A stretch of 64,000 bases of DNA from Candidatus Gygaella obscura (GCA_030765485.1 JAVCCR010000032.1:166289-230288), one strand, 5' to 3'. Positions 17,065-33,677 are shown, counted from the first letter of the stretch. Notes: a model not told the origin generated them from the letters alone. Program-made: numbers and translations.

Positions 17065-17093
17065 TTGACAAACAAAGGATTATGAAATATAGT
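17065..17093 (+). promoter_or_regulatory. Near-consensus sigma70 promoter (TTGACA-17-TATAGT) heading the T4P/c-di-GMP operon
   Basis: TTGACA at 17065-17070 and TATAGT at 17088-17093. AAGGAGG lies 7 nt before the ATG at 17131. This is the only intergenic gap of about 90 nt or more between rodA and the pilus genes. Confidence 0.5.
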
Positions 17094-17130
17094 ATTATTT
17101 AGATTAACATAATTTTAAGGAGGCATTTAT

Positions 17131-18534
17131 ATGATTAAATTATTTAAAAAAACCTCTATTTCTTCCCGGGGCTTACGCAGTAAACTGGCTGTTGCTTTTG
17201 CTTTAACTTCGACTATTCCTATACTAATCAGCGTTTATTTATTAACACAAATTACTGATATCTCTAAATTGGATTCACGTATTGGTGTGTTTCTTTTTCT
17301 GAGTCTGGTAATTGCTGTTATCGGCTATTTTGTTTTAAATACTATAGTCAGCTCGATTATTAGAACCAGCAAAAAAGCCAATGCCTATATAAACGGAAAA
17401 ACCTTTGGAGGAATGAAAATTTCCACCGATGATGAGATTTCTGATTTGAATAAAGCTATTGATAAGCTTAACGACCGTATACGCGATAATATGGATAAGC
17501 TAAGTTTTTATGATAAACAAAGCAAGCTTGTAGGTATGGATTTAAACAAAAAAATCATTGCGCTTTCAAGTCTTTTACAGATTGGAAGTTTTATTTCTTC
17601 AACCAATAATATCGATGATATTTTTTCGTTGGTTGTCGGAAAGCTGGCCAATATTGAGTCTAGCTTCGAAGTTTTTTTATTTCTGCATAATAAAAGTAAT
17701 GAGTATACGCTTGATTTTGCATCTAACCAGGAAAAAATTAAATCAAATGTTTTTACCTTATCAACCGATTCAAGAAAAATCGTTCAGGCTATTTCTAGCA
17801 ATGAGCCTTTAAGGCTTGATGTTTCTCGTTCCGAATCAAAAACCCTGGAGCGATTGGGAGAAATATTCAATATCCGCAATATAGTTATCTTTCCTATCTT
17901 TGCCTGCGAGGAGACTAAAGGGATTCTTGTAGTAGGTAGCACTAAAGGAGATTATATTTTTGAAGCATCAGATATTGAGCTTATAAGACTATTTTCTAGA
18001 CAAGTTGCTATTTCACTTGAGAAGAATCAGCTTTTTACCAAGGCAAAAAAACTGGAAGTTAAAGACGGGTTAACTGGTTTATATAATGAGCATTTTATAC
18101 GCAGCCGTCTAGAGGAAGAGATAAAACGTGCATTTATTTCTCAGAGGCCGTGTTCTTTTGTTCTTTTGACTGTAGATAGGTTTCAGGATTATCAGCAGCG
18201 CAAGGGTCAGGATGGTGCGGAGAGTTCTTTAAAACATATCGCTACTTTATTAAAAGAATCTTCTCGCGAGATTGATAAACCAGGACGATTTGGATATTCT
18301 GATTTCGCGATACTGCTTCCTGAAATGAATAAAAAGGAAGCGATTGCTCTAGCGGAAGAGGTTAGACAAAAGGTGGCTTTTATTTTTAAGGAAGAGGAAG
18401 ATGTAAAACTTCGTTTGACAATTTCAGCTGCCGTAAGTGAGAATCCCATAGATGGAATAAAAGCAGAAGAATTGATTATACATGCAAGGAATCTTTTGGC
18501 TAATAAAAACTCAGATAATAAGGTTTTTCGCTGA
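17131..18534 (+). CDS. Membrane-anchored GAF-like / degenerate-GGDEF protein with RxxD I-site retained (putative c-di-GMP receptor)
   Basis: 467 aa with two N-terminal TM helices, a HAMP-like coiled coil and a GAF-like middle domain. The C-terminal GGDEF fold has the active-site motif changed to RFGYSDF, while the upstream REID (RxxD) keeps the canonical spacing. Confidence 0.7.
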   Translation: MIKLFKKTSISSRGLRSKLAVAFALTSTIPILISVYLLTQITDISKLDSRIGVFLFLSLVIAVIGYFVLNTIVSSIIRTSKKANAYINGKTFGGMKISTDDEISDLNKAIDKLNDRIRDNMDKLSFYDKQSKLVGMDLNKKIIALSSLLQIGSFISSTNNIDDIFSLVVGKLANIESSFEVFLFLHNKSNEYTLDFASNQEKIKSNVFTLSTDSRKIVQAISSNEPLRLDVSRSESKTLERLGEIFNIRNIVIFPIFACEETKGILVVGSTKGDYIFEASDIELIRLFSRQVAISLEKNQLFTKAKKLEVKDGLTGLYNEHFIRSRLEEEIKRAFISQRPCSFVLLTVDRFQDYQQRKGQDGAESSLKHIATLLKESSREIDKPGRFGYSDFAILLPEMNKKEAIALAEEVRQKVAFIFKEEEDVKLRLTISAAVSENPIDGIKAEELIIHARNLLANKNSDNKVFR

Positions 18535-18536
18535 TA

Positions 18537-18986
18537 ATGTTTTCTCCATTTAGAAAGGTTGTCAATAAACAATTAGGTGAATTGCTGGTAGAGCATAAGA
18601 TTATAAGTGAGGCGCAGTTGAAGAAGGCGCTAGCTTTGCAAAGCCAGCGTTGCGGTGCTTTGATTGGTGAATTAATAGTAGAGCTGGGTTATGCCAAGGA
18701 AGAAGATATTGCTAATACCTTAGCTGCCCAGTACGGTTTTCCTTATTTGCCTTTGGATAATTATTCTGTTGATGAGAATATCGTAAAACTTATACCGAAA
18801 AATGTTGCAAATCAGTATTGCTTATTAGCGATAGACAAATTGGGTAATTCTATCGTTGTAGCAACAAGTAATCCTTTGAATACTCAGGCGATTGAAGACG
18901 TCGAGTATATAACCAATTGCGATGTCCGTGTTTTTATCAGTACAGCCACGAGCATCAGGGGCAAGATTAAAGAATACTACCAATAG
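18537..18986 (+). CDS. Standalone MshEN / T2SSE_N domain protein (predicted c-di-GMP-binding)
   Basis: 149 aa. QLGELLVEHKIISEAQLKKALALQ matches the MshEN 24-residue c-di-GMP binding motif (LGxxLVxx-IIxxxxLxxxLxxQ). The rest matches the GspE N-terminal domain fold consensus (...YGFPYLPLDNY...). Confidence 0.7.
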   Translation: MFSPFRKVVNKQLGELLVEHKIISEAQLKKALALQSQRCGALIGELIVELGYAKEEDIANTLAAQYGFPYLPLDNYSVDENIVKLIPKNVANQYCLLAIDKLGNSIVVATSNPLNTQAIEDVEYITNCDVRVFISTATSIRGKIKEYYQ

Positions 18987-18989: not shown

Positions 18990-20717
18990 ATGGCAACATT
19001 AAAAGAAAACCTAACTAATATTCTTATTGATAATAGCCTTATTACCCGTGAGAATTTAGAAAAAGCCATTTCTACCCAGAAACAACAAGGCGGCAGTCTT
19101 AGTCAAATTCTTATAGATTCTGGAAATGTAAAAGAAAAAGATCTAGTTATTGCCTTAAGTCAAGGTTTAGGTATTCCTCCTATTAATTTAAATAAAATCA
19201 AAGTTGATAAAAAAGTAGTTAAACTGATATCTAAAGATGTTGCGCAGCGTTATTTAATCCTGCCGATTTCTCAGGTTGGGACAACGTTAACTGTGGCTAT
19301 GGCTGATCCTTTGAACGTTTTTACACTGGATGATCTAAAGGTTCTTACGAATATGAAGATTAATCCTGTGATTACTACGGCTAATGATATCAAAGACGCT
19401 ATCAAGATTTATTATGAACAATCCCAGCAGGTGGATGGTGTTAAAATAGATGATATCATTAAGAATATTTCTTCTCCGGATATAGAGTTAGTTAATGATT
19501 CTGGCAAAACGGAAGAAAATATTAGTTTTATGCATATGATCGATGAGGCACCTATTGTAAAAATAACCAATAGGTTTCTTACTGATGCGGTTAAGCTTAG
19601 CGCAAGCGATATTTTGTTTGAGCCTTTTGAGAAGACAACCCGTGTAAGATGCAGGGTAGACGGCGCCTTAAGAGAAATCGAGACTCTGCCTAAGTATATG
19701 CATGAGGCCATAGTATCGCGTACCAAGGTAATTTCCGGGCTTGATATTTCCGAACATAGGCTTCCTCAGGATGGCCGTTTTAAGATAAAATTCCAGAGTC
19801 GGGAAGTCGATTTTAGAATTTCAATTCTGCCTTCTGTTTTCGGAGAAAAGGTTGCTTTGCGTGTTTTAGATAAAACAACTGCAATGCTTGATGTTGAAAA
19901 GCTTAATTTTTCCGACCATAATTTAAATACCATTAAACATTGTTCTTCTTTCCCGCATGGCATGATGCTTGTCTGTGGTCCTACGGGTTCGGGCAAGACC
20001 ACAACACTTTATTCAATTCTTAAATATGTGGATAGTCCTGAAAAAAATATTGTAACTGTAGAAGATCCTGTAGAATATCAGCTTAATGGAGTAAATCAGG
20101 TTACTTGTCGGATTGATATTGGTTTGACATTTGCTGCGGCCTTACGTTCAATATTAAGACAAGACCCTGATATTATTATGGTTGGTGAGATTAGAGATTT
20201 TGAGACTTTGGATATATCCATAAAATCAGCTCTTACAGGGCATATGGTTTTAAGTACACTTCATACTACTACTGCTTCTGGGTCTATAATTAGGATGTTG
20301 AATATGGGGGCAGAACCTTTTTTGATTACGTCCTGCGTAGTGGGTATTATTGCTCAAAGATTGGTGCGTAAGCTTTGTCCGAAATGTAAAGAATCATATA
20401 AGCCATCAAAGGCGGTTTTGGATACTTTAAGCATAAAAGACGATATTAATGAAAATGTTAATTTTTGTCGGCCTAAAGGTTGCCCGGAATGTTTTAATGT
20501 CGGGTACCGCGGAAGAATTGCTATTTGTGAAGTACTTGTATTAACCCATGAAGTAAAGGGTTTGATTTTAAAGCGGGCGCAGGAACATCAGATAAAAAAA
20601 ATGGCTAGGTCTCAAGGGATGCGTACGTTAAGAGAAGATGGGATAGATAAGATAATTACCGGATTAACTACACCAGAGGAAGTTTTAAAGGTAACCGCTT
20701 CAGACGCAAAGGCTTAA
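18990..20717 (+). CDS. pilB: Type IV pilus assembly ATPase PilB/GspE (paralogue 1)
   Basis: 575 aa with an N-terminal MshEN-like domain. Walker A GPTGSGKTT, Asp box VEDPVEYQL, Walker B DPDIIMVGEIRD, His box TGHMVLSTLHT, and a tetracysteine CPKC...CPEC zinc motif. Confidence 0.9.
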   Translation: MATLKENLTNILIDNSLITRENLEKAISTQKQQGGSLSQILIDSGNVKEKDLVIALSQGLGIPPINLNKIKVDKKVVKLISKDVAQRYLILPISQVGTTLTVAMADPLNVFTLDDLKVLTNMKINPVITTANDIKDAIKIYYEQSQQVDGVKIDDIIKNISSPDIELVNDSGKTEENISFMHMIDEAPIVKITNRFLTDAVKLSASDILFEPFEKTTRVRCRVDGALREIETLPKYMHEAIVSRTKVISGLDISEHRLPQDGRFKIKFQSREVDFRISILPSVFGEKVALRVLDKTTAMLDVEKLNFSDHNLNTIKHCSSFPHGMMLVCGPTGSGKTTTLYSILKYVDSPEKNIVTVEDPVEYQLNGVNQVTCRIDIGLTFAAALRSILRQDPDIIMVGEIRDFETLDISIKSALTGHMVLSTLHTTTASGSIIRMLNMGAEPFLITSCVVGIIAQRLVRKLCPKCKESYKPSKAVLDTLSIKDDINENVNFCRPKGCPECFNVGYRGRIAICEVLVLTHEVKGLILKRAQEHQIKKMARSQGMRTLREDGIDKIITGLTTPEEVLKVTASDAKA

Positions 20718-20721
20718 TAAT

Positions 20722-22443
20722 ATGGTTAAATCATTAAGAGATAAAATTCTTGATTTTTTACTTGAGGAAAAACGGATTACAAGAAGCGATATAGAGAGGT
20801 TTTCTAAGCTTCAGGAGCAAAGCAATCTTAAGATTGAAGCTATTTTGATTGATAATGCTATAATTTCTGCACAGGAGTATTTGTCTATGCTGGCAAAAGA
20901 AACTAATACTCCAGTAGTATGTCTTGAAAAAATAGATTGTGATCCGGAAATTTTAAATATTATTCCTGAAAGGATATGTCAGCAGTATAGTATTTTTCCT
21001 GTTGCAAAATTGGGGAATCTTTTAACTTTGGCTATGTCAGATCCAATGAATATTTTTGCTATGGATGATATAAAGTCTTTAACTTCTTTAGAAATCAATA
21101 CAATTTTAGCCAGCGAAGAAGATATTAAAAAGAATATACAGTTTTGGTATGAGGAGTCAAAGAATAAGGATATATCTGAACTTATCGGAGAAGTCAATGA
21201 AGATGAAATAAATGTAGTCGGAGAAGGAAAAAAGAGAGAATTTGAGGGCCAGTTTGATTTAGACAGAGCAATGCTTGAAGCTGAAAAGTCTCCTGTTATC
21301 AAACTTGTTAATCTTATGCTTTCAGAGTCATATCAGAAAAGGGCATCGGATATTCATATTGAACCAGAAGAGGATTTTTTAAGAGTTCGTTACAGAATTG
21401 ATGGAATGTTGCATGATGCTTATCAGATACCGAAAGATAAGCAGAATGCCGTAATTACACGTTTAAAAATAATGTCTAATTTGGATATTACGGAGTTCCG
21501 TATTCCTCAGGACGGTCGTTTTAAAATCCGTTTGGGTCAGAATGAAGTGGATTTCCGTGTTTCCATATTACCGATCAGTTTTGGGGAAAAGGTAGTTTTG
21601 CGTTTATTGGATAAACGTAATCTTTCGATTGGTTTGGAAAAGTTGGGGTTTTTAGCTGAGCCCATGCAGAAATTCAGAGATTGTATCAATAAACCTTATG
21701 GGATGATTCTTGTAACTGGTCCTACTGGTTCTGGTAAATCGACTACGCTTTATTCGATTATCAATCAGCTCAATACTCCTACGACGCATATAATTACTGT
21801 TGAGGACCCGGTAGAGTATCAGATCGAAGGTATAGCCCAGATTCCGGTTAAGCCGGATATTGGTCTTACGTTTTCAGCAGGTTTGAGAGCACTTTTGCGT
21901 CAGAGTCCTGATATTATATTAATTGGTGAGATTAGAGATTCTGAAACTGCAGATATTTCCGTTAAGGCATCTTTGACGGGGCAGATGGTTTTATCTACGT
22001 TACATACCAATGATGCCGCAGGGGCTATAACTCGACTTATTGATATGGGGGTAGAGCCGTTTTTGGTTTCTTCAAGTTTAATCATGACTTGTGCTCAGAG
22101 ATTAAGTAGAAAGATTTGTAGTAATTGCAAGGCAGAATATAAACCTGATCCGACTGTAGTGAAAAATCTGGGAATAAAATTAGAAAAAGGTTCAGTTCTT
22201 TATCACGGAAATGGATGTTCTCATTGTAATAATACAGGTTACCGTGGTAGAATAGGGACAATTGAAGTTTTGGTTATTGACGATAAGATTAGGGAGATGA
22301 TTATTGAAAGAGTTTCATCTGATGAAATCCGTGATTATGCTGTAACCCAGGGCATGGAGACATTGAGGGACAATGGCATTCGTCAGGCTCTCATAGGTTT
22401 AACTACCTTAGAAGAGGTTTTAAGGATAACCTCAGAGGAATAA
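20722..22443 (+). CDS. Type IV pilus/T2SS ATPase PilB/GspE (paralogue 2)
   Basis: 573 aa with the same architecture as paralogue 1 (GPTGSGKSTTLYS, VEDPVEYQI, TGQMVLSTLHT, CSNC...CSHC). Full-length, with an N-terminal T2SSE_N domain. It is not a PilT. Confidence 0.9.
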   Translation: MVKSLRDKILDFLLEEKRITRSDIERFSKLQEQSNLKIEAILIDNAIISAQEYLSMLAKETNTPVVCLEKIDCDPEILNIIPERICQQYSIFPVAKLGNLLTLAMSDPMNIFAMDDIKSLTSLEINTILASEEDIKKNIQFWYEESKNKDISELIGEVNEDEINVVGEGKKREFEGQFDLDRAMLEAEKSPVIKLVNLMLSESYQKRASDIHIEPEEDFLRVRYRIDGMLHDAYQIPKDKQNAVITRLKIMSNLDITEFRIPQDGRFKIRLGQNEVDFRVSILPISFGEKVVLRLLDKRNLSIGLEKLGFLAEPMQKFRDCINKPYGMILVTGPTGSGKSTTLYSIINQLNTPTTHIITVEDPVEYQIEGIAQIPVKPDIGLTFSAGLRALLRQSPDIILIGEIRDSETADISVKASLTGQMVLSTLHTNDAAGAITRLIDMGVEPFLVSSSLIMTCAQRLSRKICSNCKAEYKPDPTVVKNLGIKLEKGSVLYHGNGCSHCNNTGYRGRIGTIEVLVIDDKIREMIIERVSSDEIRDYAVTQGMETLRDNGIRQALIGLTTLEEVLRITSEE

Positions 22444-22444: not shown

Positions 22445-25400
22445 ATGCAAAAAGATTTAATTATCTATATTGATGAGTTGACCGAACTTTACAATAGAAG
22501 ATATCTTTCCCAGGTTTTTCCCAAGGAACTTAAAAAAGCTCAGGAAAAAAATTACAGTCTTTGGTTTTTTATGATGGATTTAGATAATTTTAAAGGCATC
22601 AATGATACCTTGGGTCATTTGGCCGGAGACGATGCTTTAAAAAGTCTCGCGGTGGTTTTGAAAAAGAATATGCGCGAGCAGGATATACTTTTTCGTTATG
22701 CAGGTGATGAATTTTCCGCAATTATCCCCGGTGGTACGCTTTCTGATGTTCTGGCGGTAGCTAAAAGAATTCTAGAAAACGTTGCCAGGTCCTCTTTTGG
22801 CAGTAATCCTATGCAGCCGGCAATGAAATTCACGGTTAGTATCGGTATTTCTTGTTTTCCTGAAGATGCAGTCGATACCCTGCGTTTGATTGATTTGGCT
22901 GACAAAGCCCTTTATGTATCGAAAAGAAAAGGTAAAAATCATATTTCCGTCGTTAGCGATGTGCCTCCAGAAGTTTTAAGTCTGTATCAGATTTTAGAAA
23001 AATTTCCTTGTCCTGTTTTTATCGATAGAGTAGAAGAATTAAACCAGCTTTTTAAAGCTACAGACGAATTTATAGCGCATAAAAAGAAAAAGAACATTTT
23101 TATATTCGGAAATTCCGGAATAGGAAAGACAAGGATTTTACATGAGTACGGAAAGAGAATTTCCAGTAAAAACATAAGCTTGATAGTTTCGCACGCAAAC
23201 GAAAAAGACATTTTTACAAATTATCATATTTTTATCGATGGTATTAGCGATTATTTCAAGACGCATAGTTTTCAGATGGAACTGCTGGAAGGTTTAGATG
23301 ATAAGGCTAAGTCAATTTTGGTAGGTTTTATTCCGGATTTGAAACGATTCGTAAGCGTTTCCGATACAGAACTTAAAAATCTTTCTGGTAAATCAATTAA
23401 GGATGAAGAAATAAAGATTATTTTCAAGAAATTTATTTCTAATATATGCAAAAAGCATTCTTTGTGTTTTGTGGTTGATGACCTGCAGTGGACAGATAAG
23501 GCAAGTTTGGATTTATTAAAGGAATTTAATTCCATAGAAGAAAGTCTGATGGTTATTGCTGCGGTTTCTAATGATTATGTTGTGCAAAAGGATAACCTTG
23601 TTCCTTTAAGCGATTTTATAACTAAGCATAGTTTATCTTTTGAGAGGCTTGATGTTAAACCATTTGAAAAAGAACAGGCTGCTAAGATGGTTAATGCTGT
23701 TTTTAATTCTTTGGATAATTTGAACGAATTTACATCGTTGTTATTTTCTGTTACCAAGGGTTCACCTTTATTTATTGAAGAGCTTCTAAAGTATTTTATA
23801 AATCGTGGTTTTGTTTTTTATCGTAAAGGAAAATGGGGTTGGTTGGATATAAGAAAAGAAGATCTTCCTTCAAGTATAGAAGAAGTCGTTGCTCAGCGTA
23901 TAAAATCTTTAAGTTCTGAATTAAAAGAGGTCATTACTCAGGCATCTGTAATCGGAGAGGGTTTTGAATTAAATCTTCTTCAGAAGTTAGGTAAAAAGAA
24001 TCAGGGCTATCTTATGGATTTGATTGAAACCGCCAAGAAATCTGGTCTTATCAGGGAGGAAAAAGGAGCTGAAGGCACCAGATTTGTTTTTACTAGTGCA
24101 AAAGTAAAGGATGTTTTATATGGTTTGGCAGATAAAAATGAAATTAAAAATCTTAACCGACAGATCGGACAGATAAAAGAAGAGATTTATAAAGGTAATG
24201 AAGATCAGGTTGCCGGCGAGTTATACTATCGATTTAAAAAGGCAGAAGATGAAAAGAAAGCTACTCGTTATGCAAAGATGGTTAAAGAAGGCCGTTCTTT
24301 TGTTTATGAAAAGAGTATTCATTTTGCCAAGGGTCTTCTGGAAGAAGTACAGGTTACTGAACAGGAAATTCCTGATAAGGTAATTGATGGAGTTTCTGAT
24401 ATTGTACGTCTTATTTATGTTTCCCAAATTAACAGCAGTCTTTATCCAAAGGGCAGCTCCATGCGTACTCAACCTTTGGCAGATTTGATTTCAAAACTAA
24501 AGAATATCTTTGAATATGTTTTGGTGGTAAGTTTTAGTCATTTTAATGAATTTTTAGTTGTTAATAATCGGATTTACGATAATGAGAGCCTTAAGGGAAC
24601 ATTTAGGAATGCATTTATTGGTCTTTTAAAGCAGAACAAGATTGAAAAAATTTCTTTTTTCCCTAGTTTAAGCGTAGAGGAGTTGGAGAATTTTTTAGAA
24701 TTGTTTGAATCAAGTGAAAAAGAAATATTCAAGAATAAATTTAATCAAGAAGAATTTGCTAATATAAAGGTAGAGTATTTAAGTTATGAGAACTATCTTT
24801 CCAAAAGGACCAAAGACAGAGAGCAGTTGCAGGATATTATGCTTTTGGATTATCTTTTAGGTAAAGTTCCTGGAGAAGGCATAGGGGGCAAGATGGATAT
24901 TCTTGATAAAATCCAGACACATAGTCAGGATATAGCTTCTGCTCTTACCAAGATGGCGGATAAAGTTAGCAAGCAAAAAGGAGTTGATAAGGATTCGGCA
25001 AGGGCAGATATACTTTCTGATAATTTTAAGAAAATATCTCAGCATATATTTAATAAAGGAGAAGGGGCCTGGGATAAGTATAAGAAAGGGCTTGCCAATA
25101 CAATACTTTCACTTGAACCTAATCTGCGCGATGAGGTTTTACATAAACAACTTGAAGAGGATAAGAAAAATGCCGCGCTTGAAAATAATCAGTCTGCTTC
25201 TGATACATCCGAAGAAGCTGTTTCTTTTGATAATACAGATGAATCGACTGGTAATTTAAAAAAAGATGCTTTGAAAGATCAGCCGCAGCAGGATATTATC
25301 AAGGCCTTAGCAGGAGAATTTCCCGAAGATGTTGTTCTGGATTTGATAAAGAAGGAATATAAAGATGGCGACAATAGCCCCGAGCAGTTTAAAGAGATAG

Positions 25401-26608
25401 TTCTAAAATTCTTGCCTGAAGATAATGACCAGAAAAAAACCTTGATGGATAAGATTAGTAAGCTTTTAAAAGAAGAAGGGGCTTCGGAAGAAGAGTTGAA
25501 GTTTCTTACTCAGGAAGAATTCTGGCCAAAACTTGGATTTAGTGAAAAGATTATAGATTTTATGAATATGGCTTCAGATAGATATGTATATATTTCCAAC
25601 AAATACGGGTTTAATCCGGTTATGGAGTTTGCGCTTTCTTCAGAGACAGGAGAGGTTAAAAAAATACTTGAACGCTTGGTTTATTTTATTGAGTCGGATA
25701 GCTTAGAAGCAAAAAAGATAGCCAAGCAGGACCTTCTGTCCTTGATTGATCTGGTGTTTACTTATAAGAAAAGCGAATTTTTAGAATTGTTAATTAATAC
25801 ATTTATCGCTGAATTGCGCAAAGAGCATAATGAAGAAACTACCAGTATATTTATTAATCATATTGAAAAACTTACTTATGTTGTTTTTTCTATGGCAGCT
25901 TTTGATTTATTCTCCAAAGTAATTAATGAATTAAAAAAACTTGTTGCAGAAGATAACACTTCCGAAGATATGAAGGCAAATCTCAGTTTGGTTTTATCTC
26001 ATATTTGCTCAGATGAAATAGTTCAACGATTGATTGAAAGATTATTTAATTATGTTGATAGCAATGAGGATTATTCTCAAATTATTCAGATTTTTGTTGC
26101 CATCGGTAAGCAGGCAGCGAATAGATTGATTGATGAGGCAATGTTTGAGAAAAACATAAATGTTGTAGGTTATTTCGGCGGATACCTTAGAAGAAAGGCT
26201 GTCGGTAATATTTTAAATATGATGGATAAAAATGATGTTATGGAGTTTATAAAAAATAGACTTCAAAACGAGAAGTGGTTTATTGTACGCAATACAATTG
26301 ATTTAATTATGCATATAGATAATCCTGAGTATATTTTACTTCTTGGAATCGTGAAAGATAATAACGATTCGCGCGTAAGAAGAAAACTGCTTTTTGTTTT
26401 GGGTAGGTTTAAGAGCAAGCAGGCATTGGATATTTGTTATTCTCTGGCTAATGACCGTGATGATGCTATTGCTATGGGTTCGATAAAGCTGATTGCTTCT
26501 ATTGGAGATAAAGATTCTCTTGATTTTTTGAACAATTTATCTGTAAAACATTCCTTGCGTGATGAGAAAAATAAAGCTATTGAAGAGCTGAAAGAAAGGT
26601 TAAAATAA
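22445..26608 (+). CDS. Large multidomain signalling protein: GGDEF (RYAGDEF, I-site REQD) - AAA16/STAND-type P-loop NTPase - helical/HEAT-like repeats
   Basis: 1387 aa. Residues 1-175 form a GGDEF fold (DLDNFKGINDTLGHLAGD...RYAGDEF...KALYVSKRKGKN). Walker A is FGNSGIGKTR and Walker B is LCFVVDDLQWTDKASLDLL, the AAA_16/STAND signature. The C-terminal ~250 aa are HEAT/PBS-like repeats (DSRVRRKLLFVLGRF...NDRDDAIAMGSIKLIASIGD). It is translationally coupled to pilB2 upstream and to the MshEN gene downstream. Confidence 0.7.
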   Translation: MQKDLIIYIDELTELYNRRYLSQVFPKELKKAQEKNYSLWFFMMDLDNFKGINDTLGHLAGDDALKSLAVVLKKNMREQDILFRYAGDEFSAIIPGGTLSDVLAVAKRILENVARSSFGSNPMQPAMKFTVSIGISCFPEDAVDTLRLIDLADKALYVSKRKGKNHISVVSDVPPEVLSLYQILEKFPCPVFIDRVEELNQLFKATDEFIAHKKKKNIFIFGNSGIGKTRILHEYGKRISSKNISLIVSHANEKDIFTNYHIFIDGISDYFKTHSFQMELLEGLDDKAKSILVGFIPDLKRFVSVSDTELKNLSGKSIKDEEIKIIFKKFISNICKKHSLCFVVDDLQWTDKASLDLLKEFNSIEESLMVIAAVSNDYVVQKDNLVPLSDFITKHSLSFERLDVKPFEKEQAAKMVNAVFNSLDNLNEFTSLLFSVTKGSPLFIEELLKYFINRGFVFYRKGKWGWLDIRKEDLPSSIEEVVAQRIKSLSSELKEVITQASVIGEGFELNLLQKLGKKNQGYLMDLIETAKKSGLIREEKGAEGTRFVFTSAKVKDVLYGLADKNEIKNLNRQIGQIKEEIYKGNEDQVAGELYYRFKKAEDEKKATRYAKMVKEGRSFVYEKSIHFAKGLLEEVQVTEQEIPDKVIDGVSDIVRLIYVSQINSSLYPKGSSMRTQPLADLISKLKNIFEYVLVVSFSHFNEFLVVNNRIYDNESLKGTFRNAFIGLLKQNKIEKISFFPSLSVEELENFLELFESSEKEIFKNKFNQEEFANIKVEYLSYENYLSKRTKDREQLQDIMLLDYLLGKVPGEGIGGKMDILDKIQTHSQDIASALTKMADKVSKQKGVDKDSARADILSDNFKKISQHIFNKGEGAWDKYKKGLANTILSLEPNLRDEVLHKQLEEDKKNAALENNQSASDTSEEAVSFDNTDESTGNLKKDALKDQPQQDIIKALAGEFPEDVVLDLIKKEYKDGDNSPEQFKEIVLKFLPEDNDQKKTLMDKISKLLKEEGASEEELKFLTQEEFWPKLGFSEKIIDFMNMASDRYVYISNKYGFNPVMEFALSSETGEVKKILERLVYFIESDSLEAKKIAKQDLLSLIDLVFTYKKSEFLELLINTFIAELRKEHNEETTSIFINHIEKLTYVVFSMAAFDLFSKVINELKKLVAEDNTSEDMKANLSLVLSHICSDEIVQRLIERLFNYVDSNEDYSQIIQIFVAIGKQAANRLIDEAMFEKNINVVGYFGGYLRRKAVGNILNMMDKNDVMEFIKNRLQNEKWFIVRNTIDLIMHIDNPEYILLLGIVKDNNDSRVRRKLLFVLGRFKSKQALDICYSLANDRDDAIAMGSIKLIASIGDKDSLDFLNNLSVKHSLRDEKNKAIEELKERLK

Positions 26609-26610: not shown

Positions 26611-27081
26611 ATGCCTTTTAAAAGACAGTCGATATATAAGAAGCAATTATTGGGCCAGATTTTTTTAAAAAGCGGGATTATCTCTAAGGAGCAGCTTAAG
26701 GAAGCGCTTGAAACACAGAAAAAAGAGGGTGGGTTTTTAGGAAGCGTATTGATTAAGCTTGGTTATTTGACTGAGATGGATTTGGTTACAGGTTTGTCTA
26801 GCCAGTGCAGTATACCTTATTTGCCGCCTCAAAGATATAAAATACCGAAAAGTGTTTCTGAAATCATGACTGAGGATTTTTTAAGAGAGAATAGTTTTGT
26901 TCCTATTGATAAATTTCACGATACTCTGACAGTTTGTATGGTTAATCCTTTAAATGATCGGGCAATAAGCGAGATTTCACGAGTTAGCAATATGGAAGTT
27001 CTTGCCTGTATTGCCACAAAGGAAGAAATAGAAAAAACAATTAATAGCTTATTTAAGAAAAATTCTAAAAATGGATTGTAA
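26611..27081 (+). CDS. Standalone MshEN / T2SSE_N domain protein (second copy)
   Basis: 156 aa. LLGQIFLKSGIISKEQLKEALETQ is an excellent match to the MshEN c-di-GMP binding motif. Downstream is ...CSIPYLPPQRY..., as in GspE N-domains. Confidence 0.7.
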   Translation: MPFKRQSIYKKQLLGQIFLKSGIISKEQLKEALETQKKEGGFLGSVLIKLGYLTEMDLVTGLSSQCSIPYLPPQRYKIPKSVSEIMTEDFLRENSFVPIDKFHDTLTVCMVNPLNDRAISEISRVSNMEVLACIATKEEIEKTINSLFKKNSKNGL

Positions 27082-27143: not shown

Positions 27144-28349
27144 ATGCCACAATTTAAATATTACTCAAAAGACAAAAAAGGAGCTTCTGTAAATGGTATC
27201 CTTGAAGCGGAAAATAAAAACGTTGTAATTGAAGAATTAAGGCGTAGGCAGTTAACTATCATTACCTTAAAGGAAGTAAAGAAGGCCTTTAGTTTTGGTG
27301 GTAAGAAAAAGGTTTCTTCGGATGATTTGGTTATTTTCTCCCGTCAGTTAGCCACAATGGTAAATTCTGGCATACCGTTAGTTCAGTCTTTGGATATTCT
27401 AGGTGAACAACTTGATAATAAGCAATTCCGTTCGATAATTATGACTATTAGAGATGATATACAGACAGGTCTTAGCTTATCCGGTGCGTTTGCAAAACAC
27501 CCCAGTGTTTTTTCTACACTTTACATAAACATGGTAAAAGCTGGGGAGACTTCTGGTATGCTTGATGAGATTTTAGATCGGCTTGCTATCTACTTGGAAA
27601 AGTCCAATTCTTTAAAAAAGAAGATAATGGCAGCTATGATTTATCCTGCTTTGGTTTTTAGTATGGCGATAATAATCACTTCCGGTCTTTTGATTTTCGT
27701 TGTCCCTCAGTTTAAATCGATTTTTAGTTCTTTTGGCGGCAAACTTCCATTACCTACGGTTATTTTAATCGCTATAAGTGATAATTTTGCAAAGATTATA
27801 CCTTCTTTGATTGTGCTAATAATTATTACTGCGGTTGTATTTTCCCGGGTCATTAAAACTCCGAAAGGAAGATTCAAATTTGATCAGTTTAAGCTAAAAG
27901 TGTTTATTTTCGGTAAGATGTTTCAGATGGTGGCAGTAAGTAGGTTTTCTAGGACATTATCTACGTTAGTCAGAAGCGGCGTTTCTATTTTAACTGCCTT
28001 AGATATAGTTTCTAAAACAACGGGAAATAAAGTTATTGAACAGGCATTGGATAATGTAGGTGCTAATATAAAAGAAGGTAAATCCATTGCTTTGCCTTTG
28101 GCTGAGGCTAAGGTTTTTCCTCCTATGGTTGTAAGGATGATTTCTGTAGGTGAGCAGTCAGGAGAGTTAGAAAAGATGCTTACTAAGATCTCTGATTTTT
28201 ATGATGAACAGGTGGATATTGCCGTATCTGGACTTTCCAGCGTAATAGAGCCTGTAATTATTATATTTTTAGGTCTTGTTATTGGCTCAATCGTTATTGC
28301 CATATTCTTGCCGATATTGAAGATGTCTTCTCTTGTCGGAGGAATGTAA
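27144..28349 (+). CDS. pilC: Type IV pilus platform protein PilC (GspF family)
   Basis: 401 aa with two GspF repeats and 3 TM segments. Characteristic blocks are SRQLATMVNSGIPLVQSL and MISVGEQSGELEKML. Confidence 0.9.
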   Translation: MPQFKYYSKDKKGASVNGILEAENKNVVIEELRRRQLTIITLKEVKKAFSFGGKKKVSSDDLVIFSRQLATMVNSGIPLVQSLDILGEQLDNKQFRSIIMTIRDDIQTGLSLSGAFAKHPSVFSTLYINMVKAGETSGMLDEILDRLAIYLEKSNSLKKKIMAAMIYPALVFSMAIIITSGLLIFVVPQFKSIFSSFGGKLPLPTVILIAISDNFAKIIPSLIVLIIITAVVFSRVIKTPKGRFKFDQFKLKVFIFGKMFQMVAVSRFSRTLSTLVRSGVSILTALDIVSKTTGNKVIEQALDNVGANIKEGKSIALPLAEAKVFPPMVVRMISVGEQSGELEKMLTKISDFYDEQVDIAVSGLSSVIEPVIIIFLGLVIGSIVIAIFLPILKMSSLVGGM

Positions 28350-28353
28350 AAGG

Positions 28354-28824
28354 ATGAAGAAAAGTTTTTCTCTTATAGAGCTGGTGTTTGCTCTTGGGAT
28401 ATTGGCTCTTGTGGCAGCGACTTTTATGATGAGTTTTGCTAATTACTCTAATCTTAATGAAACTAATATAAATATTAATTTAGCTACCATAAAGGCAAAG
28501 TCTATTGCTGAAGAGCTGATTTCAATCAATGATTCTGATCAGGGGCATTTGAAGACTGCAAAAAATGCCTGTGGTACTATGAAAGTAGTGGAAAGCGGTG
28601 AATTAACCGGTGTGGGCCAATCCGGAACCGGTATATACTCAGTGTTGGTAAAATGTTTAAAAAATTCCAGTGGAACTAGTTGTTTGGATCAGACATTTGA
28701 TGTAAGTGTAATAGTTTGTTGGGTGCAGTCAAACGGCAGATTGATTGGTATAAGAGACGATGATAATGAAGAATGTACGGTTTCTAATTACGGGTATAAT
28801 ACTAGCTTTACTACTGATAATTAA
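28354..28824 (+). CDS. Prepilin-type N-terminal domain protein (pilin/pseudopilin candidate)
   Basis: MKKS|FSLIELVFALGILALVAATFM has a class-III signal-peptide-like N-terminus with Glu at +5 and Phe at +1, but Ser rather than Gly at -1. It is a small secreted protein with a Cys pair in the C-terminal region. Confidence 0.5.
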   Translation: MKKSFSLIELVFALGILALVAATFMMSFANYSNLNETNININLATIKAKSIAEELISINDSDQGHLKTAKNACGTMKVVESGELTGVGQSGTGIYSVLVKCLKNSSGTSCLDQTFDVSVIVCWVQSNGRLIGIRDDDNEECTVSNYGYNTSFTTDN

Positions 28825-28827: not shown

Positions 28828-29442
28828 ATGATATTGAACAAAAAAATTAGATCTAACAAGGCTTTTAGTATATTAGAATTAGTTACATCAATGACGATTT
28901 TTTCATTTTTGACTATATTTTTGTTTTCCGGCATTATCACTGTGCGTAATATCTGGCTGAAGTCTTCAGCTAAATTAAAGCTTACGGATGAATTGACCAA
29001 CGCTTTTGAGGTTATGAAAAATGATTTGTCTTATGCTGTTTCGAACAGGCTGAAGGTTTCGTCGTTATCAGCCGATTACTGCGCTGCAACTAGCGCCAGT
29101 AGCGGAGTTTTGATTTTATTCCCAGTACCTACCGTAATCAGCGGAAGTTATTTTAGTAGTTCCGGTAGTGTGCAAATAGGTTGTGATGGAGATAGCAATA
29201 AAAGAATCAGGTATAGGGTTGATGGTAAAAAGTTACTTAGAGAGATAGTCAGTGCAACTTCACCCTGCCATGCGCATGAGACGAAAGCCTTGGTTTATAA
29301 TATGGATACTGATTCTCCTATTGGATTTAGTTTTGACGGTACATATAAAACTTTAACCATTACTATGAATTTAGAAGATAGCGATTTTCAGGATAATGAG
29401 GTTGTCTTAAGTTTCGAGGAGACAGTTTATCTAAGGAATTAA
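28828..29442 (+). CDS. Prepilin-type N-terminal domain protein (second pilin/pseudopilin candidate)
   Basis: ...NKA|FSILELVTSMTIFSFLTIFLF has Phe at +1 and Glu at +5, with Ala at -1, followed by a hydrophobic helix. Confidence 0.45.
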   Translation: MILNKKIRSNKAFSILELVTSMTIFSFLTIFLFSGIITVRNIWLKSSAKLKLTDELTNAFEVMKNDLSYAVSNRLKVSSLSADYCAATSASSGVLILFPVPTVISGSYFSSSGSVQIGCDGDSNKRIRYRVDGKKLLREIVSATSPCHAHETKALVYNMDTDSPIGFSFDGTYKTLTITMNLEDSDFQDNEVVLSFEETVYLRN

Positions 29443-29452
29443 AAAGGAAATG

Positions 29453-32038
29453 ATTATGAAAAATAAAAAAGGTATTGCTATTATTGTAACATATTCTATC
29501 CTTGTGCTTTTGTTGATGCTTTCTGCCGCGTTTATGTATCAGGGTATAAACGCCAATTATTTAACTAAAAAAAAGCTTACTAATAATACTGCGCGTGCAA
29601 ATGCAGAAAAAGGTATTGCTTATGTTTTAAGGGAGCTTTCTTTTAATTCTGATTTGATAACGCATACGGTTAATGCTTCTACAGATGTCTTAGAGAGTGC
29701 TGATCTTACTGCGACTCTTAAATTGCCCAATACTGCTATTTTAAATGATGCCCAACTTGATATAGACGGTTGTTACTTTGGTTATGGAAGTTCTGTTAGC
29801 GATGTTCTATTTAGGGTAAAAACATATCATAAGCCAGGTTCAGAAGGTGATACAGTGGTTGTAAGTCAAGGTATAGACGCAGGTCATACTGTTTATCTGG
29901 CTTCGACTATAAGCTCTACGAGTCTTTATGATTATTTTATGTTTTTTCAAGGGAATCAGTCTTTTGGTTGGGGAAGTAATTTTGATGGGAAAGGTTTAGG
30001 AAGAATTTTTGTTAACGGCAATGCTTATTTTACTCAGGGTAAGATTACCGATGCTGCAGAATTTGCTGTTGCAAAGGATATAAAGATTCCCGCGAGTACT
30101 TATAATACGCCTGCTAGGTTAGACTCAATTGATGGAACAACAGATAATAAGGCTCCGTTACCTACTCTATATGTAGATATGGATTGTGGTAGTATTGCAA
30201 GTGATCCTGCGTTGAAACAAGTCGCGTTTGACAATATTCATTATAATGATGCTAGTGATTGGCCGCCACCTTACATGACAATGACTACGGAAGCACGAAA
30301 GGCGATTTATAACGAAATCCATGATTTTAACGGAGATGGTAATGTAAATAAACTTGATTATGTTTACATCCCGGATAAGACCGATGAAACAAAATCTTTA
30401 CCTTGGAAAGCAGATGGTTATGTTTATAACGAATGGTTGCCCGCAGGTAGTTATATCAGGGACTGGAAAGATGTAGATAACCATTTTTATATACCTTCAA
30501 ATTTTTATAAGCAGTTTATTTTTACTGCTGAAGGAAGTGGGACTACTGCAGATTATTCATTTAATCTTCCTAGTACAGGCAGTACACCTGCTTTTGCAAC
30601 GAGTTGGGATTGGCAGATGTATAATACAAGCGAGCCATATCCTTTAACCTGGCAGGCTTATGATTATGAAACAGGCGCAGTGGTGGACGTTGCGAATAAT
30701 TTTAGTGATGAAGGATACTGGAAAAATATTCTAAGGGCCTTAGAGGATACTGGTAATCTTAGTGATATTGATAAAGCCGATATTGAAAATTACGCCTGGG
30801 CTTATGGAAGTAATACAACAGTAAGCGTTAATTATTTGGATACTGCCGTACAATCTCTAGAATGGAATGGTTGGCTTGAAAGCACAACTATGGCTTTGGA
30901 TTCCGGAGATACTTTAAAATTGTCTGATGTTGTTAAAACCAATGAAGGTATTATTAATCCTCCTGAGGTAGCAGAGTATTATGCTACATTAGCCCAGGAT
31001 CCTACCGTGGGTATTTATATTGATCCAGATGAGATTATTGCAGGAAGTTCTGCTGATCCTAAAGTTCAGGCTTTAATTGATGAAAGTTGCATTACAATGA
31101 CACAATTCTATAATAATTATAATCCTGTTGTTGATACAACTACAACAAAAGATCCCGATACAACCAATGATATTACATTTCCTGAACCGGCAGTAAAAGT
31201 TGATGTTGCCTGTGTAAAGGCTTTATCTGACTCAGGTGAATCTTTTAAGGCAAATGTGATTTATGTAAAGCCTGCGATAAAAAGTGTTGCCGGTCAATTA
31301 GTAGATAATTCTCCTTCTGGCACAAATAAAGATATACCTATAAGTAGTCTTCTTGTTAATGGTGAAAGTATTCCCGATGGGGGCATGACTTTTGTAGCAC
31401 CTTATCCAGTTTATGTAAAGTCAGATTTTAATATTTCCGATCCTCAGCCAGCATCCATTATAACGAATTCTAACTACTATGTTTTATCTGATCAATATCA
31501 GGATTATGGTACAGAAAGACGTACATCACTCAATAAACCTGCGACAACCTGTACAGGTGAATTTACTGATCCCAGTTGTGATGGGCCTCAGCATCTGCCC
31601 GGTCTTAGATATTCAACTGACGGTTATTCAAATCCGCTTGAGTATCCATATGAAACTCCGGAACATACTATTTTTGCGGGAAAGAACAATCCACCTGTTG
31701 CTGCAGAAAATAAAATGGGTGATATAACACAAAGGGTATCAGTTGTTATTCCCGGAGGTCTTTATACTTCGATTGAAAACGGCTATGGTTCAACAGTTAG
31801 TATAATCGGTTCGAGAATAGAAGTAGATTCATGGACAAGTGAAAGTAGTAGGCTTGGGTATTATGATCGCAGTAGGGTAAGCCCTGGTGGTGTTAGTACA
31901 TACTATGGTGCTAGCGTTGTCCGGGATTATGATGAAATGTTACTGACAAGTAAGCCCCCGGGAGATTTTAGCGGTACAGCAAGTGAGCTGATGGTTGAGG
32001 TAACAGCAGATGATTTCTTGAAGAACACGAAATTCTAA
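29453..32038 (+). CDS. Large PilX-N-like pilus-associated protein with EF-hand/dockerin-like Ca-binding loop (putative tip adhesin, PilY1-like role)
   Basis: About 860 aa. The N-terminus KKGIAIIVTYSILVLLLMLSAAFM resembles the PilX_N minor-pilin anchor. There is a DFNGDGNVNKLDY loop (nt ~30323-30361). The protein is Gly/Thr/Asn/Asp-rich with no other recognisable family. Confidence 0.45.
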   Translation: MMKNKKGIAIIVTYSILVLLLMLSAAFMYQGINANYLTKKKLTNNTARANAEKGIAYVLRELSFNSDLITHTVNASTDVLESADLTATLKLPNTAILNDAQLDIDGCYFGYGSSVSDVLFRVKTYHKPGSEGDTVVVSQGIDAGHTVYLASTISSTSLYDYFMFFQGNQSFGWGSNFDGKGLGRIFVNGNAYFTQGKITDAAEFAVAKDIKIPASTYNTPARLDSIDGTTDNKAPLPTLYVDMDCGSIASDPALKQVAFDNIHYNDASDWPPPYMTMTTEARKAIYNEIHDFNGDGNVNKLDYVYIPDKTDETKSLPWKADGYVYNEWLPAGSYIRDWKDVDNHFYIPSNFYKQFIFTAEGSGTTADYSFNLPSTGSTPAFATSWDWQMYNTSEPYPLTWQAYDYETGAVVDVANNFSDEGYWKNILRALEDTGNLSDIDKADIENYAWAYGSNTTVSVNYLDTAVQSLEWNGWLESTTMALDSGDTLKLSDVVKTNEGIINPPEVAEYYATLAQDPTVGIYIDPDEIIAGSSADPKVQALIDESCITMTQFYNNYNPVVDTTTTKDPDTTNDITFPEPAVKVDVACVKALSDSGESFKANVIYVKPAIKSVAGQLVDNSPSGTNKDIPISSLLVNGESIPDGGMTFVAPYPVYVKSDFNISDPQPASIITNSNYYVLSDQYQDYGTERRTSLNKPATTCTGEFTDPSCDGPQHLPGLRYSTDGYSNPLEYPYETPEHTIFAGKNNPPVAAENKMGDITQRVSVVIPGGLYTSIENGYGSTVSIIGSRIEVDSWTSESSRLGYYDRSRVSPGGVSTYYGASVVRDYDEMLLTSKPPGDFSGTASELMVEVTADDFLKNTKF

Positions 32039-32048: not shown

Positions 32049-32702
32049 ATGGCGCAGATAAATCTTTTACAGACAAGGATGGTTTTAAAGACAAAAAAAG
32101 CCAAGGCGCAAAATGGTGCAGGTAGCGCTAAGGGTTTTAATTTTGATTTTAAGATAAATTTCAGAAGAATGCCCCGCTGGTTTTTTATAATTGCTATTGG
32201 CTGGATTGCGTTTTTATTTATCGGTGAAACTGTATTGCTTTTGCGTCTGAGTGGTGAGAAGAAGAAATTAAGAATTTTAGAAACCGAAGGAACTCTTTTT
32301 TCAAAGAGCCCTAAGGAATTGAGTGCTTTAAAGAAAAGAAAAAAAAGCATGCAGGATGCTTTAGGTATTATTGAGAGTTTTTTGATTACCAAAACACCGT
32401 TTTCGCAGGCGCTAAATATTATCAGTGATGAAGTAGTTGATGGTCTTTGGCTCGAGAAGATATTTTTTAATTCTAAAAAAATTGATAAAGATAACGATCA
32501 AATAATTATAAAGATAAACGGTAAGGTTTATTCAGTAATTGCCCAAGAACAGATTGATATTCTGGGACAGTTTTCTAGTGGTTTAAAAAATAATCCTTAT
32601 TTTGAGTTATTATTTAGTGGTCTAAAGGTAGGCAATCTTAAAAATGTAAATTTTCTTGGTTTTGATGTGTTGGATTTTGAGATGGAGGTAACTTTAAAAT
32701 AA
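32049..32702 (+). CDS. pilN: Type IV pilus inner-membrane alignment protein PilN
   Basis: N-terminal MAQINLLQTR (the INLL hallmark of PilN), a single TM (WFFIIAIGWIAFLFIG), then a periplasmic domain. Confidence 0.6.
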   Translation: MAQINLLQTRMVLKTKKAKAQNGAGSAKGFNFDFKINFRRMPRWFFIIAIGWIAFLFIGETVLLLRLSGEKKKLRILETEGTLFSKSPKELSALKKRKKSMQDALGIIESFLITKTPFSQALNIISDEVVDGLWLEKIFFNSKKIDKDNDQIIIKINGKVYSVIAQEQIDILGQFSSGLKNNPYFELLFSGLKVGNLKNVNFLGFDVLDFEMEVTLK

Positions 32703-33290: not shown

Positions 33291-33677
33291 ATGAAAAGAA
33301 TAATTATAATATTTTTGGTTTTGATTTTAACTTCAATTTGTCTTGCAGAAGAAAATGCTTTTGAAGAAAGATTGAGTTTTAAGTATAATGATAATGATAA
33401 GCGTGATCCGTTGATCCCTTTACTTGATAAAGATGGTTTACGTCCTAAATCAGAGTTGTTTGAGAAGGCAGAGCTGCCTATAGAAATAAATTTATCAGGT
33501 ATTGTTTGGAATAAAGATGTGCAATTTGCTATAATAAATGGTAAAATAGTAAAAGAAAATGAAGAAGTTGCAAGAGGGTTGATTTTAGAAAAAATAAATC
33601 TTGAAAGCGTCGTCTTGGAGTATGGAGAAAGAAGCACTACTATATATATAGGAGGCCCCAAGAAGGATGGTAAGTAG
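33291..33677 (+). CDS. pilP: PilP-like pilus assembly protein
   Basis: 128 aa with a signal peptide, the KRDPLIP motif (the RDPF-type motif of PilP), and a C-terminal beta domain. Position between pilO and pilQ. Confidence 0.5.
   Translation: MKRIIIIFLVLILTSICLAEENAFEERLSFKYNDNDKRDPLIPLLDKDGLRPKSELFEKAELPIEINLSGIVWNKDVQFAIINGKIVKENEEVARGLILEKINLESVVLEYGERSTTIYIGGPKKDGK

Follow-up and report, generated by a model that had tools for sequence, protein, structure and literature searches.

A tandem pair of PilB-class ATPases in the type IVa pilus cassette of Candidatus Gygaella obscura and other Omnitrophota

The PilB pair and its cassette

Candidatus Gygaella obscura is a member of the Omnitrophota represented by a metagenome-assembled genome from Ace Lake (PMC8542988). 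The stretch of this genome analysed here, 64,000 nucleotides (nt) in length (GCA_030765485.1, JAVCCR010000032.1:166289-230288) and referred to as the window, carries two adjacent genes for full-length ATPases of the PilB class, designated PilB1 and PilB2. Both are on the + strand, with 4 nt between them. The pair is part of a pilus cassette at positions 17131-37920, in which intergenic gaps are 10 nt or less, the sole exception being 62 nt ahead of pilC. The cassette is preceded by a 94-nt gap (17037-17130). The features of the gap and the cassette are as follows (aa, amino acids).

17065..17093, + strand: best sigma-70-like promoter match of the region (TTGACA-17-TATAGT, 11/12), within the 94-nt gap; a consensus match only
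17131..18534, + strand: GAF-GGDEF protein with GYSDF in place of GGDEF (Pfam GAF and GGDEF)
18537..18986, + strand: M1, stand-alone MshEN protein, 149 aa (Pfam MshEN; NF053729, 55.2 bits)
18990..20717, + strand: PilB1, PilB-class ATPase, 575 aa (Pfam, NCBIfam, tree, clade signature)
20722..22443, + strand: PilB2, PilB-class ATPase, 573 aa (Pfam, NCBIfam, tree, clade signature)
22445..26608, + strand: GGDEF-STAND(AAA_16)-HEAT protein, 1387 aa (Pfam; NCBIfam GGDEF, 160 bits)
26611..27081, + strand: M2, second stand-alone MshEN protein, 156 aa (Pfam; NF053729, 58.8 bits)
27144..28349, + strand: PilC/GspF platform protein, single copy in the window (Pfam T2SSF)
28333..28824, + strand: prepilin-type pilin, N-terminus KKS/FSLIEL (Pfam N_methyl; N-terminus read)
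28828..29442, + strand: second prepilin-like protein, 204 aa, KA/FSILEL (N_methyl 16.7 bits, weak and below the cut-off)
29450..32038, + strand: 862-aa protein with one N-terminal hydrophobic segment (no Pfam or NCBIfam match)
32049..32702, + strand: protein in the PilN position, 217 aa (no Pfam match; conserved place before PilO)
32708..33289, + strand: PilO (Pfam)
33291..33677, + strand: small T2SSB-like protein (29.7 bits, cut-off 28.4)
33667..35211, + strand: PilQ-type secretin (Pfam Secretin, Secretin_N and STN; TIGR02515, 293.5 bits against a cut-off of 284.35)
35205..36854, + strand: TPR-repeat protein (Pfam)
36838..37920, + strand: PilM, which closes the tightly packed cassette (Pfam PilM_2, E 1e-40)

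The genes pilC, pilM, pilO and pilQ are present in one copy each in the packed operon, and the genomic context is that of a PilB, with pilC, pilM/N/O, a pilQ secretin and prepilins. The platform protein scores 407-416 bits on the NCBIfam PilC and GspF models, in all cases under the equivalog cut-offs. The true start of the first pilin is likely to be the Met at about 28354. A faint PilN match was found for the ortholog of the 217-aa protein in L085 (L numbers denote the loci compared). The 862-aa protein among the pilin genes could be an adhesin or a tip protein peculiar to this lineage; it has no counterpart at that position in L084-L086. Overall, promoter-like sites are not enriched, with 81 found and 69 expected.

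Motifs and family class of the two ATPases

A first-pass annotation, made from the sequence alone, had described the two genes as tandem full-length PilB/GspE-type ATPases. This was borne out by the open reading frames (ORFs) and by the presence in both of the Pfam domains MshEN (the former T2SSE_N) and T2SSE (E 1e-132 for PilB1 and 1e-134 for PilB2). The two proteins are 43% identical over 575 residues. Walker A is GPTGSGKT in PilB1 and GPTGSGKS in PilB2, the Asp box TVEDPVEY is common to both, and Walker B with the catalytic Glu reads DPDIIMVGEIRD in PilB1 and SPDIILIGEIRD in PilB2. The tetracysteine motif is CPKC...CPEC in PilB1 and CSNC...CSHC in PilB2. PilB1 has the canonical His box, TGHMVLSTLHT, and in PilB2 this is TGQMVLSTLHT, the first His being replaced by Gln. 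The list of motifs previously ascribed to both paralogues is therefore correct for Walker A and B, the Asp box and the four Cys, but not for the first His-box His of PilB2.

The NCBIfam cut-offs are 675.65 bits for TIGR02538 (PilB), 630.25 for TIGR02533 (GspE), 319.1 for TIGR01420 (PilT/PilU) and 850 for NF053534 (TfpB). TIGR02538 is the top family for both proteins over the full length of the model, with 638.0 bits for PilB1 and 627.9 bits for PilB2; both scores are under the equivalog cut-off, which makes these proteins PilB-class rather than certified equivalogs. The GspE scores are also below their cut-off (571.9 and 603.7 bits, respectively), and the context is one of PilM, PilO and PilQ, not Gsp. 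Neither is a short PilT/PilU-type protein, as had been noted in the first pass, the TIGR01420 scores of 175.7 and 187.6 bits being far under the threshold. Nor are they TfpB orthologs (452.2 and 464.0 bits). The closest solved structures are those of Geobacter and Myxococcus PilB (515-537 bits), with GspE structures at 384-417 bits. Either paralogue shares 44% core identity with E. coli GspE and HofB, against 30% with PilT. Both have the architecture of a PilB, consisting of N1, N2 and C-terminal ATPase domains with all catalytic motifs and the tetracysteine, and neither has the full set of PilB-invariant residues (the ASDIH His, both His-box His, the FGEK Glu and HTND). PilB1 and PilB2 are thus predicted to be extension-class (PilB-type) ATPases, with a role in pilus extension.

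PilB2 is nearer to the GspE model than PilB1 (604 vs 572 bits, cut-off 630), and GspE structures score it at 417 vs 384 bits. This could indicate that the two motors drive two outputs of one envelope machine, a surface pilus on the one hand and a type II secretion system (T2SS)-like secretion pseudopilus or a different pilin set on the other. At least two prepilin-like genes follow pilC, and giant proteins of the Omnitrophota have been reported near T2SS/type IV pilus-like loci (10.1101/2023.11.21.568195); in the window a giant ORF begins about 21 kb beyond the cassette. The first-pass annotation had likewise raised the possibility of two alternative pilin substrates. However, both paralogues match PilB best, neither is closer than the other to E. 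coli GspE and HofB, the operon has a single platform protein and a single secretin, neither motor is linked to any particular pilin, and the roughly 21 kb that part the giant ORF from the cassette are housekeeping genes. Two outputs are therefore considered improbable.

Age and conservation of the pair

Searches with each paralogue returned its own set of Omnitrophota proteins, at 55-60% identity, and at least 10 PilB1-type and PilB2-type matches occur on shared contigs. A neighbor-joining tree was built from 380 core columns of 155 sequences with 200 bootstraps, in which the outgroup PilBs are mostly of other phyla, from among the matches listed in an alignment scan of a genome collection. 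The PilB1 clade has 98% and the PilB2 clade 100% bootstrap support, and the two are sisters in 5%. Mean core identity between PilB1 and PilB2 is 50.6%, and that of either to PilBs of other phyla is 50-51%; within the two clades it is 66% and 69%.

The first-pass annotation had left room for a simple duplication. That the genes adjoin on the same strand and share an identical domain architecture would fit a recent tandem duplication with redundant copies, yet the copies are only 43% identical, they fall into separate phylum-wide clades with the support given above, they keep fixed reciprocal differences across 120 and 121 orthologs, and the pair is present in cassettes only 55-57% identical to that of the window. 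A recent origin of this kind is refuted by the low identity, the phylogeny and the fixed differences, and has next to no probability. These comparisons indicate that the pair is old and phylum-wide, not a recent local duplication, and that both paralogues are under selection and look competent.

Gene order is kept in the loci of relatives at 55-57% identity, running murA-mreBCD-pbp2-rodA-...-M1-PilB1-PilB2-...-PilC-...-PilO-secretin-PilM. The cassettes were surveyed through a DNA scan of a metagenome collection for the PilB2-type His box (TGQ...STLHTND), which gave at least 80 loci; the proportions reported here are those of a sample, among the matches listed. Each of the 33 complete tandem pairs has a gene of the ASDI[L/F]/TGH type upstream and one of the ASDIH/TGQ type downstream. 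In L089 and L090 there is a 4-nt overlap between the PilB1 and PilB2 genes, and M1 precedes PilB1 in every cassette with that region covered. The first-pass annotation had omitted the phylum-wide linkage to mreBCD-pbp2-rodA, as well as the presence in the operon of M1, M2 and two proteins with a GGDEF domain.

The mre-linked cassette is seen in the window, where the linked upstream genes are at 10043-17036, and in L084-L086, L089-L093, L111, L117, L166, L168, L169 and L172. A Radical_SAM_N2-type gene is often found between the elongation genes and the pilus cassette in Omnitrophota. Two cassettes carry insertions that are mobile-element-like. In L094, the closest family-level relative, a 79-aa GIY-YIG ORF (5433-5672) lies between PilB1 and PilB2, and in L091, an Orphnella-like locus, a Y1 transposase gene (13034-13708) follows pilC.

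Type IVa pili are present in nearly all Omnitrophota genomes (PMC10066038). PilB duplication, PilT and c-di-GMP (cyclic di-GMP) are absent in such a context from that survey, from the description of Gygaella (PMC8542988) and from two giant-gene papers, one of them 10.1101/2023.11.21.568195. No published description of the PilB1-PilB2 pair was found in the literature on Omnitrophota.

Reciprocal signature residues

Residues were compared across 120 PilB1-type proteins, 121 PilB2-type proteins and 67 PilBs from other phyla. The His of the N2-domain ASDIH motif is present in 121/121 PilB2-type proteins and 67/67 of the others, and in 0/120 of the PilB1 type, which have Leu (117), Phe (2) or Met (1). 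The reverse is seen for the first His-box His (H413 of G. metallireducens), which is present in 120/120 of the PilB1 type and 67/67 of the others but in 0/121 of the PilB2 type, where Gln (93), Glu (23), Thr (3) or Val (2) is found. The FGEK Glu is kept in 120/120 PilB1-type proteins and 66/67 of the others, and in 5/121 of the PilB2 type, with Gygaella obscura among the five. The DPD Asp is kept in 120/120, 0/121 and 59/67 of the PilB1-type, PilB2-type and other proteins, respectively. Most PilB1-type proteins also have Cys for Thr three residues ahead of the Walker A Thr, and HTTT for HTND. The window PilB1 has ASDIL for ASDIH (L209), C329 before Walker A and HTTT for HTND; the window PilB2 has Gln at the first His-box position (Q421) and SPD for DPD. 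Conserved in 100% of both clades are the Walker A Lys, the Asp-box Glu, the catalytic Glu of GEIRD, both Arg fingers, the gamma-phosphate His (H420 of G. metallireducens) and the four Cys.

In hexameric motors of this family each packing unit pairs the N2 domain of one chain with the C-terminal domain of the adjacent chain (10.1101/082750). In PilB, T411 is placed between H413 and H420, and the chains act cooperatively through the His box (10.1101/082750). In PilT, D32 and the His-box residues T221/H230 make closed-interface contacts between packing units (PMC6858323); by our own reading, D32 is the Asp of the ASDLH motif. When aligned to PilB and PilT, both signature changes map 2 residues from known inter-subunit contacts.

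An obligate mixed ring would account for this pattern, PilB1 and PilB2 forming a heterohexamer in which the ASDIL face of N2 meets the TGQ face of the His box and there are two kinds of active-site interface. Such a ring agrees with the strict co-occurrence and order in 33/33 complete pairs, with genes that lie 4 nt apart or overlap, and with losses that are reciprocal and mutually exclusive, affecting the N2 domain in PilB1 and the C-terminal domain in PilB2. These are the two domains that neighbouring chains bring together in a packing unit (10.1101/082750), both positions flank the known contacts (PMC6858323), and PilB-TfpB hetero-oligomers have been raised as a possibility in a 2024 review (PMC11656802). 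Against this, the characterised paired motors PilT and PilU are described as separate homohexamers (PMC6821130). For PilB, a C2-symmetric mode of action about a dimer of PilC has been described (10.1101/082750), and by our reasoning a 3:3 alternating ring is incompatible with a C2 composition. In addition, L119 (2783-4618) encodes a distant 611-aa PilB-class protein with a TGQ His box and a canonical xSDIH, and no ASDIL-type partner was found within 2.7 kb upstream of it. The TGQ change can thus occur apart from the pair, and Gln is probably compatible with a homomeric ring. On balance the mixed ring is unlikely, although it deserves serious consideration.

PilT beside the pair and its probable loss

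The first-pass annotation had also stated that the locus has no PilT-like retraction ATPase, and none is present within the 64-kb window. A tblastn search of the window with PilB1 and PilB2 found no third ATPase of the superfamily, only the MshEN domains of M1 and M2, and Pfam annotation of the other window genes showed housekeeping functions and no PilT. There is no pilT just outside the window on the readable side either, because the 9 kb before it is the dcw cell-division cluster, from mraY to ftsA; the downstream end lies inside the giant ORF. A search of a 5.8-billion-protein set with a profile of three Omnitrophota PilTs gave no protein named Gygaella among the best 120 matches, but the PilT of L092 was likewise missing from these, which makes this result uninformative.

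Other Omnitrophota do have PilT beside the cassette. The ORFs concerned score 433-478 bits on TIGR01420 and are genuine members of the family; the phylum has a widespread PilT family of 358 aa, with 75-82% identity among its members. The usual context is rodA-(small ORF)-PilT-M1-PilB1-PilB2-PilC, with L092 alike and having a radical-SAM gene upstream, and several cassettes read rSAM-GAF-GGDEF-PilT-M1-PilB1-PilB2-PilC. Of the 31 cassettes that show the gene before M1, 13 have PilT in this place and 18 have another gene. With 12 further fetched loci, PilT is beside the pair in 17/43 cassettes and not in 26/43. In three more loci, L121, L127 and L151, PilT lies 3' of PilB2; these are metagenome contigs of 30-35% G+C and carry the same signature pair, xSDIL/TGH then ASDIH/TGQ.

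Since PilT adjoins the same pair in 17/43 cassettes, the pair predates the PilT-less state and did not replace PilT. The suggestion in the first-pass annotation that one paralogue was recruited for retraction finds no support as an origin of the pair. The window has the common PilT-less form, which can be read as a clean pilT deletion; only 2 nt separate the GAF-GGDEF gene from M1. The arrangement is best read as a Gygaella lineage that lost the operon pilT and gained a putative diguanylate cyclase and a second MshEN protein.

Three other patterns were considered and rejected. A PilT/GGDEF swap at one slot is contradicted by the many cassettes that hold GAF-GGDEF and PilT together. Mutual exclusion of PilT and M2, which eight loci had suggested, is broken by L091, which has neither. 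The C329/HTTT variant of PilB1 does not track the loss of PilT, as it is also found in 8 PilT-containing cassettes.

It is a separate matter whether, in lineages that now lack PilT, one PilB-class paralogue later took over retraction as part of a c-di-GMP-switched extension/retraction set. The lack of PilT in the window and the 9 kb upstream and in 26/43 cassettes would be in keeping with this, as would changes at interfaces whose open and closed pattern has been proposed to set motor direction (10.1101/082750; PMC6858323). M2 and cyclases between pilB2 and pilC are also commoner in PilT-less cassettes. However, the same signatures are found in PilT-containing and PilT-less cassettes and no change tracks PilT loss, the C329/HTTT variant of PilB1 included. 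Both proteins are far below the PilT family cut-off, and PilT may be encoded elsewhere, given the widespread 358-aa family. Such a takeover is doubtful. In its fullest form, which is more doubtful still, the pair in PilT-less Omnitrophota would be a self-sufficient bidirectional set that moves PilC in opposite directions, as separate or mixed rings, with MshEN proteins selecting between them by c-di-GMP. If this were true, it would be type IVa pilus retraction without any PilT-class ATPase.

Predicted components for c-di-GMP

NF053729 is the NCBIfam model of the MshE-type c-di-GMP motif, with a cut-off of 38 bits. This is passed by M2 (58.8 bits), M1 (55.2) and PilB1 (44-49) and failed by PilB2 (28.6). 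When aligned, all four have two 24-residue motifs with a 5-residue spacer. M1 and M2 have near-canonical motifs, whereas those of PilB1 are partial and those of PilB2 degraded. In the window PilB1, both motif Gly residues of the predicted c-di-GMP domain are replaced. A profile of our own, built from canonical PilB N-termini, gave a mean of 66 bits (48-97) for the N-domains of the PilB1 clade and 51 bits (29-70) for those of the PilB2 clade. The window PilB1 scores 56 bits; the window PilB2, at 29 bits, is the minimum of its clade. The view expressed in the first pass that the N-domain of paralogue 1 fits MshEN better is upheld (49 vs 28.6 bits on NF053729), with the strongest contrast in this genome. 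Its idea of a c-di-GMP-gated and a constitutive motor agrees with the motif fit as predicted from these domains, but because the clade means differ only moderately, the distinction between a responsive motor and an unresponsive one is evident in Gygaella obscura alone.

The cassettes in which M2 was seen all lack PilT, and not every PilT-less cassette has it. A library of 1.84 billion proteins contains many stand-alone MshEN proteins of 145-180 aa, and M1 and M2 therefore belong to a known kind of protein.

In most loci, genes with a GGDEF domain are found ahead of the cassette or inside it, with REC-GGDEF or short GGDEF genes at the same places in other cassettes. The active site of the GAF-GGDEF protein is degenerate in 4/4 orthologs compared, being GYSDF, ADSQF, GDYEF and GDSEY (window 17131-18534, L084 6549-7823, L085 6387-7820 and L086 6452-7816). 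This protein has two N-terminal hydrophobic segments, as judged by eye, and in most loci its gene precedes the rest of the cassette. Its role is probably that of a sensor or a c-di-GMP/GTP-binding regulator or receptor, not that of a cyclase. The 1387-aa protein has an N-terminal GGDEF domain (AGDEF, with an RxxD I-site), a STAND-type AAA_16 NTPase and C-terminal HEAT repeats. Its REQD-ILFRY-AGDEF motifs are kept in L084 and L086; orthologs are present in L084, L086 and L093 and absent from L085 and L091. AGDEF is reportedly active in a Vibrio enzyme. The operon's diguanylate cyclase is probably this 1387-aa protein. This is an odd cyclase architecture, sited between the pilus motor genes and pilC.

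A proposed pair of cooperating extension motors

The reading favoured here, with a probability of roughly 45%, is that PilB1 and PilB2 cooperate as two extension motors, controlled by c-di-GMP and acting on one platform. Its starting points are observations, namely the identity, conservation and synteny of the genes, their signature residues, and the occurrence of PilT with the pair in relatives. Since the catalytic residues are intact in both, PilB1 and PilB2 would both be active hexameric motors. Both would serve the same pilus machine, docking on one PilC platform, because there is a single PilC, a single PilM and a single secretin. In Acinetobacter baylyi a single pilus is served by two extension motors that are phylogenetically distinct (PMC8213720; review PMC11656802), and as with the PilB and TfpB of that organism the jobs may be split, for example into initiation and processive extension. 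In the form preferred here, separate PilB1 and PilB2 rings would replace one another on the platform, and their different tasks would be set by the reciprocal changes near packing-unit contacts, at the ASDIH His in PilB1 and the first His-box His in PilB2. The AGDEF cyclase of the operon would make c-di-GMP, to be read by the MshEN domains of M1, M2 and the PilB1 N-domain, with PilB2 here largely without the motif. Retraction, if any, would depend on a PilT encoded elsewhere or be motor-independent.

Several points weigh against the cooperation of two separate motors. Strict adjacency and reciprocal interface losses suit the mixed ring at least as naturally. The ATPase activity, ring composition, c-di-GMP binding and division of labour are all predicted from sequence. 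The first Arg of the c-di-GMP motif is Asn in the window PilB1, and the PilB2 N-domain is just moderately weaker than that of PilB1 across the clade (51 vs 66 bits). The search for PilT covered the window and the 9 kb upstream, and a PilT elsewhere in the Gygaella obscura genome may exist. The neighbor-joining tree does not resolve its deep nodes, and the pair may have originated through duplication, either inside the phylum or at an earlier point, or through transfer.

Neighbouring genes in the window

The window has a G+C of 35% and almost every gene is on the + strand. Upstream of the cassette are murA, mreB, mreC, mreD, pbp2, rodA and a radical-SAM gene. At 37929-38315, 8 nt past pilM, lies an ORF of 128 aa that matches Cpn10 weakly (41 bits); it is followed downstream by a DRTGG/AAA_26 gene and pta-ack. 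The 165-aa ORF at 48564-49061 matches only the first third of amino-acid permease profiles (1-147 of 427) and could be a pseudogene or a gene that has been truncated. When the window was scanned for Rfam families and tRNAs, no match was obtained.

The giant ORF (58946-64000, + strand) has more than 1685 codons and runs past the window end. It begins about 21 kb beyond the cassette, with housekeeping genes between, and it has no Pfam match. It has a signal-peptide-like N-terminus, LIKKQILITVLVCLSLVVYAGKAFA, and a G+C of 0.41-0.43, above that of the rest of the window. ATG, GTG and TTG are absent near the start of the open frame, therefore a rarer start codon may be used. This is probably one of the Omnitrophota giant proteins.

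Significance and comparison with known systems

Extension of type IV pili has long been credited to one PilB motor, the well-studied exception being PilB/TfpB of Acinetobacter. Across the whole phylum Omnitrophota, an arrangement of two PilBs is the rule. These are ultra-small, probably predatory or parasitic bacteria, and their pili are thought to serve in host attachment. The clear signatures at cooperativity interfaces, together with natural operons that have or lack PilT, are testable handles: there are residues to swap, natural variants to compare and small MshEN proteins as candidate c-di-GMP adaptors. The pair will escape annotation software that counts a single pilB for each system. 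The role of multiple PilB homologues is listed among the open questions in a 2024 review (PMC11656802).

In PilT/PilU pairs, paralogous motors of one pilus are often encoded in tandem, as here, and the two cooperate, one depending on the other (PMC6821130, PMC6762196). PilT and PilU are retraction-class and short, at about 345-380 aa, and lack an N1 domain, whereas the Omnitrophota pair is extension-class, with N1 (MshEN) and the tetracysteine. The MshEN domains of the cassette have the same two 24-residue motifs and 5-residue spacer as MshE of the Vibrio cholerae MSHA system, C. perfringens PilB2 and M. xanthus PilB. In MshE-type systems, binding of c-di-GMP to the extension ATPase promotes assembly (PMC11656802). 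Here binding is predicted, and unlike in those systems the best motifs are on the small proteins M1 and M2, the PilB2 motif is degraded and a cyclase is encoded within the operon. Thermus thermophilus PilF, which matches both paralogues structurally at 474-484 bits, is likewise a PilB-class motor system with several MshEN-type domains. In PilF the extra domains are in one polypeptide, whereas in the window four MshEN domains are spread over M1, PilB1, PilB2 and M2.

Two full-length PilB-class genes in one pilus locus are also found as PilB-PilT-PilB in L031, L041, L065 and L080 (Planctomycetota), L079 (Opitutae), L060 (Omnitrophota) and L021. The Omnitrophota are usually allied to the superphylum of the Planctomycetota and Verrucomicrobiota. 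Those loci do not carry the same pair, because both copies keep ASDIH and TGH; they also form their own groups in the tree and flank PilT. We know of no published study of these Planctomycetota/Verrucomicrobiota loci.

The system most like that of the Omnitrophota is PilB and TfpB of A. baylyi (PMC8213720), where two full-length, phylogenetically distinct PilB-class ATPases likewise serve one pilus system and their mutual divergence equals that from other members of the family. PilT coexists with the two in A. baylyi, as it does in 17/43 Omnitrophota cassettes. Unlike those of A. baylyi, the Omnitrophota genes are adjacent in one operon throughout the phylum, have reciprocal interface losses and are known from sequence alone. 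The principle of two motors is therefore already known, and what is new here is a type IVa system with two predicted extension motors that is conserved phylum-wide and marked by sequence signatures.

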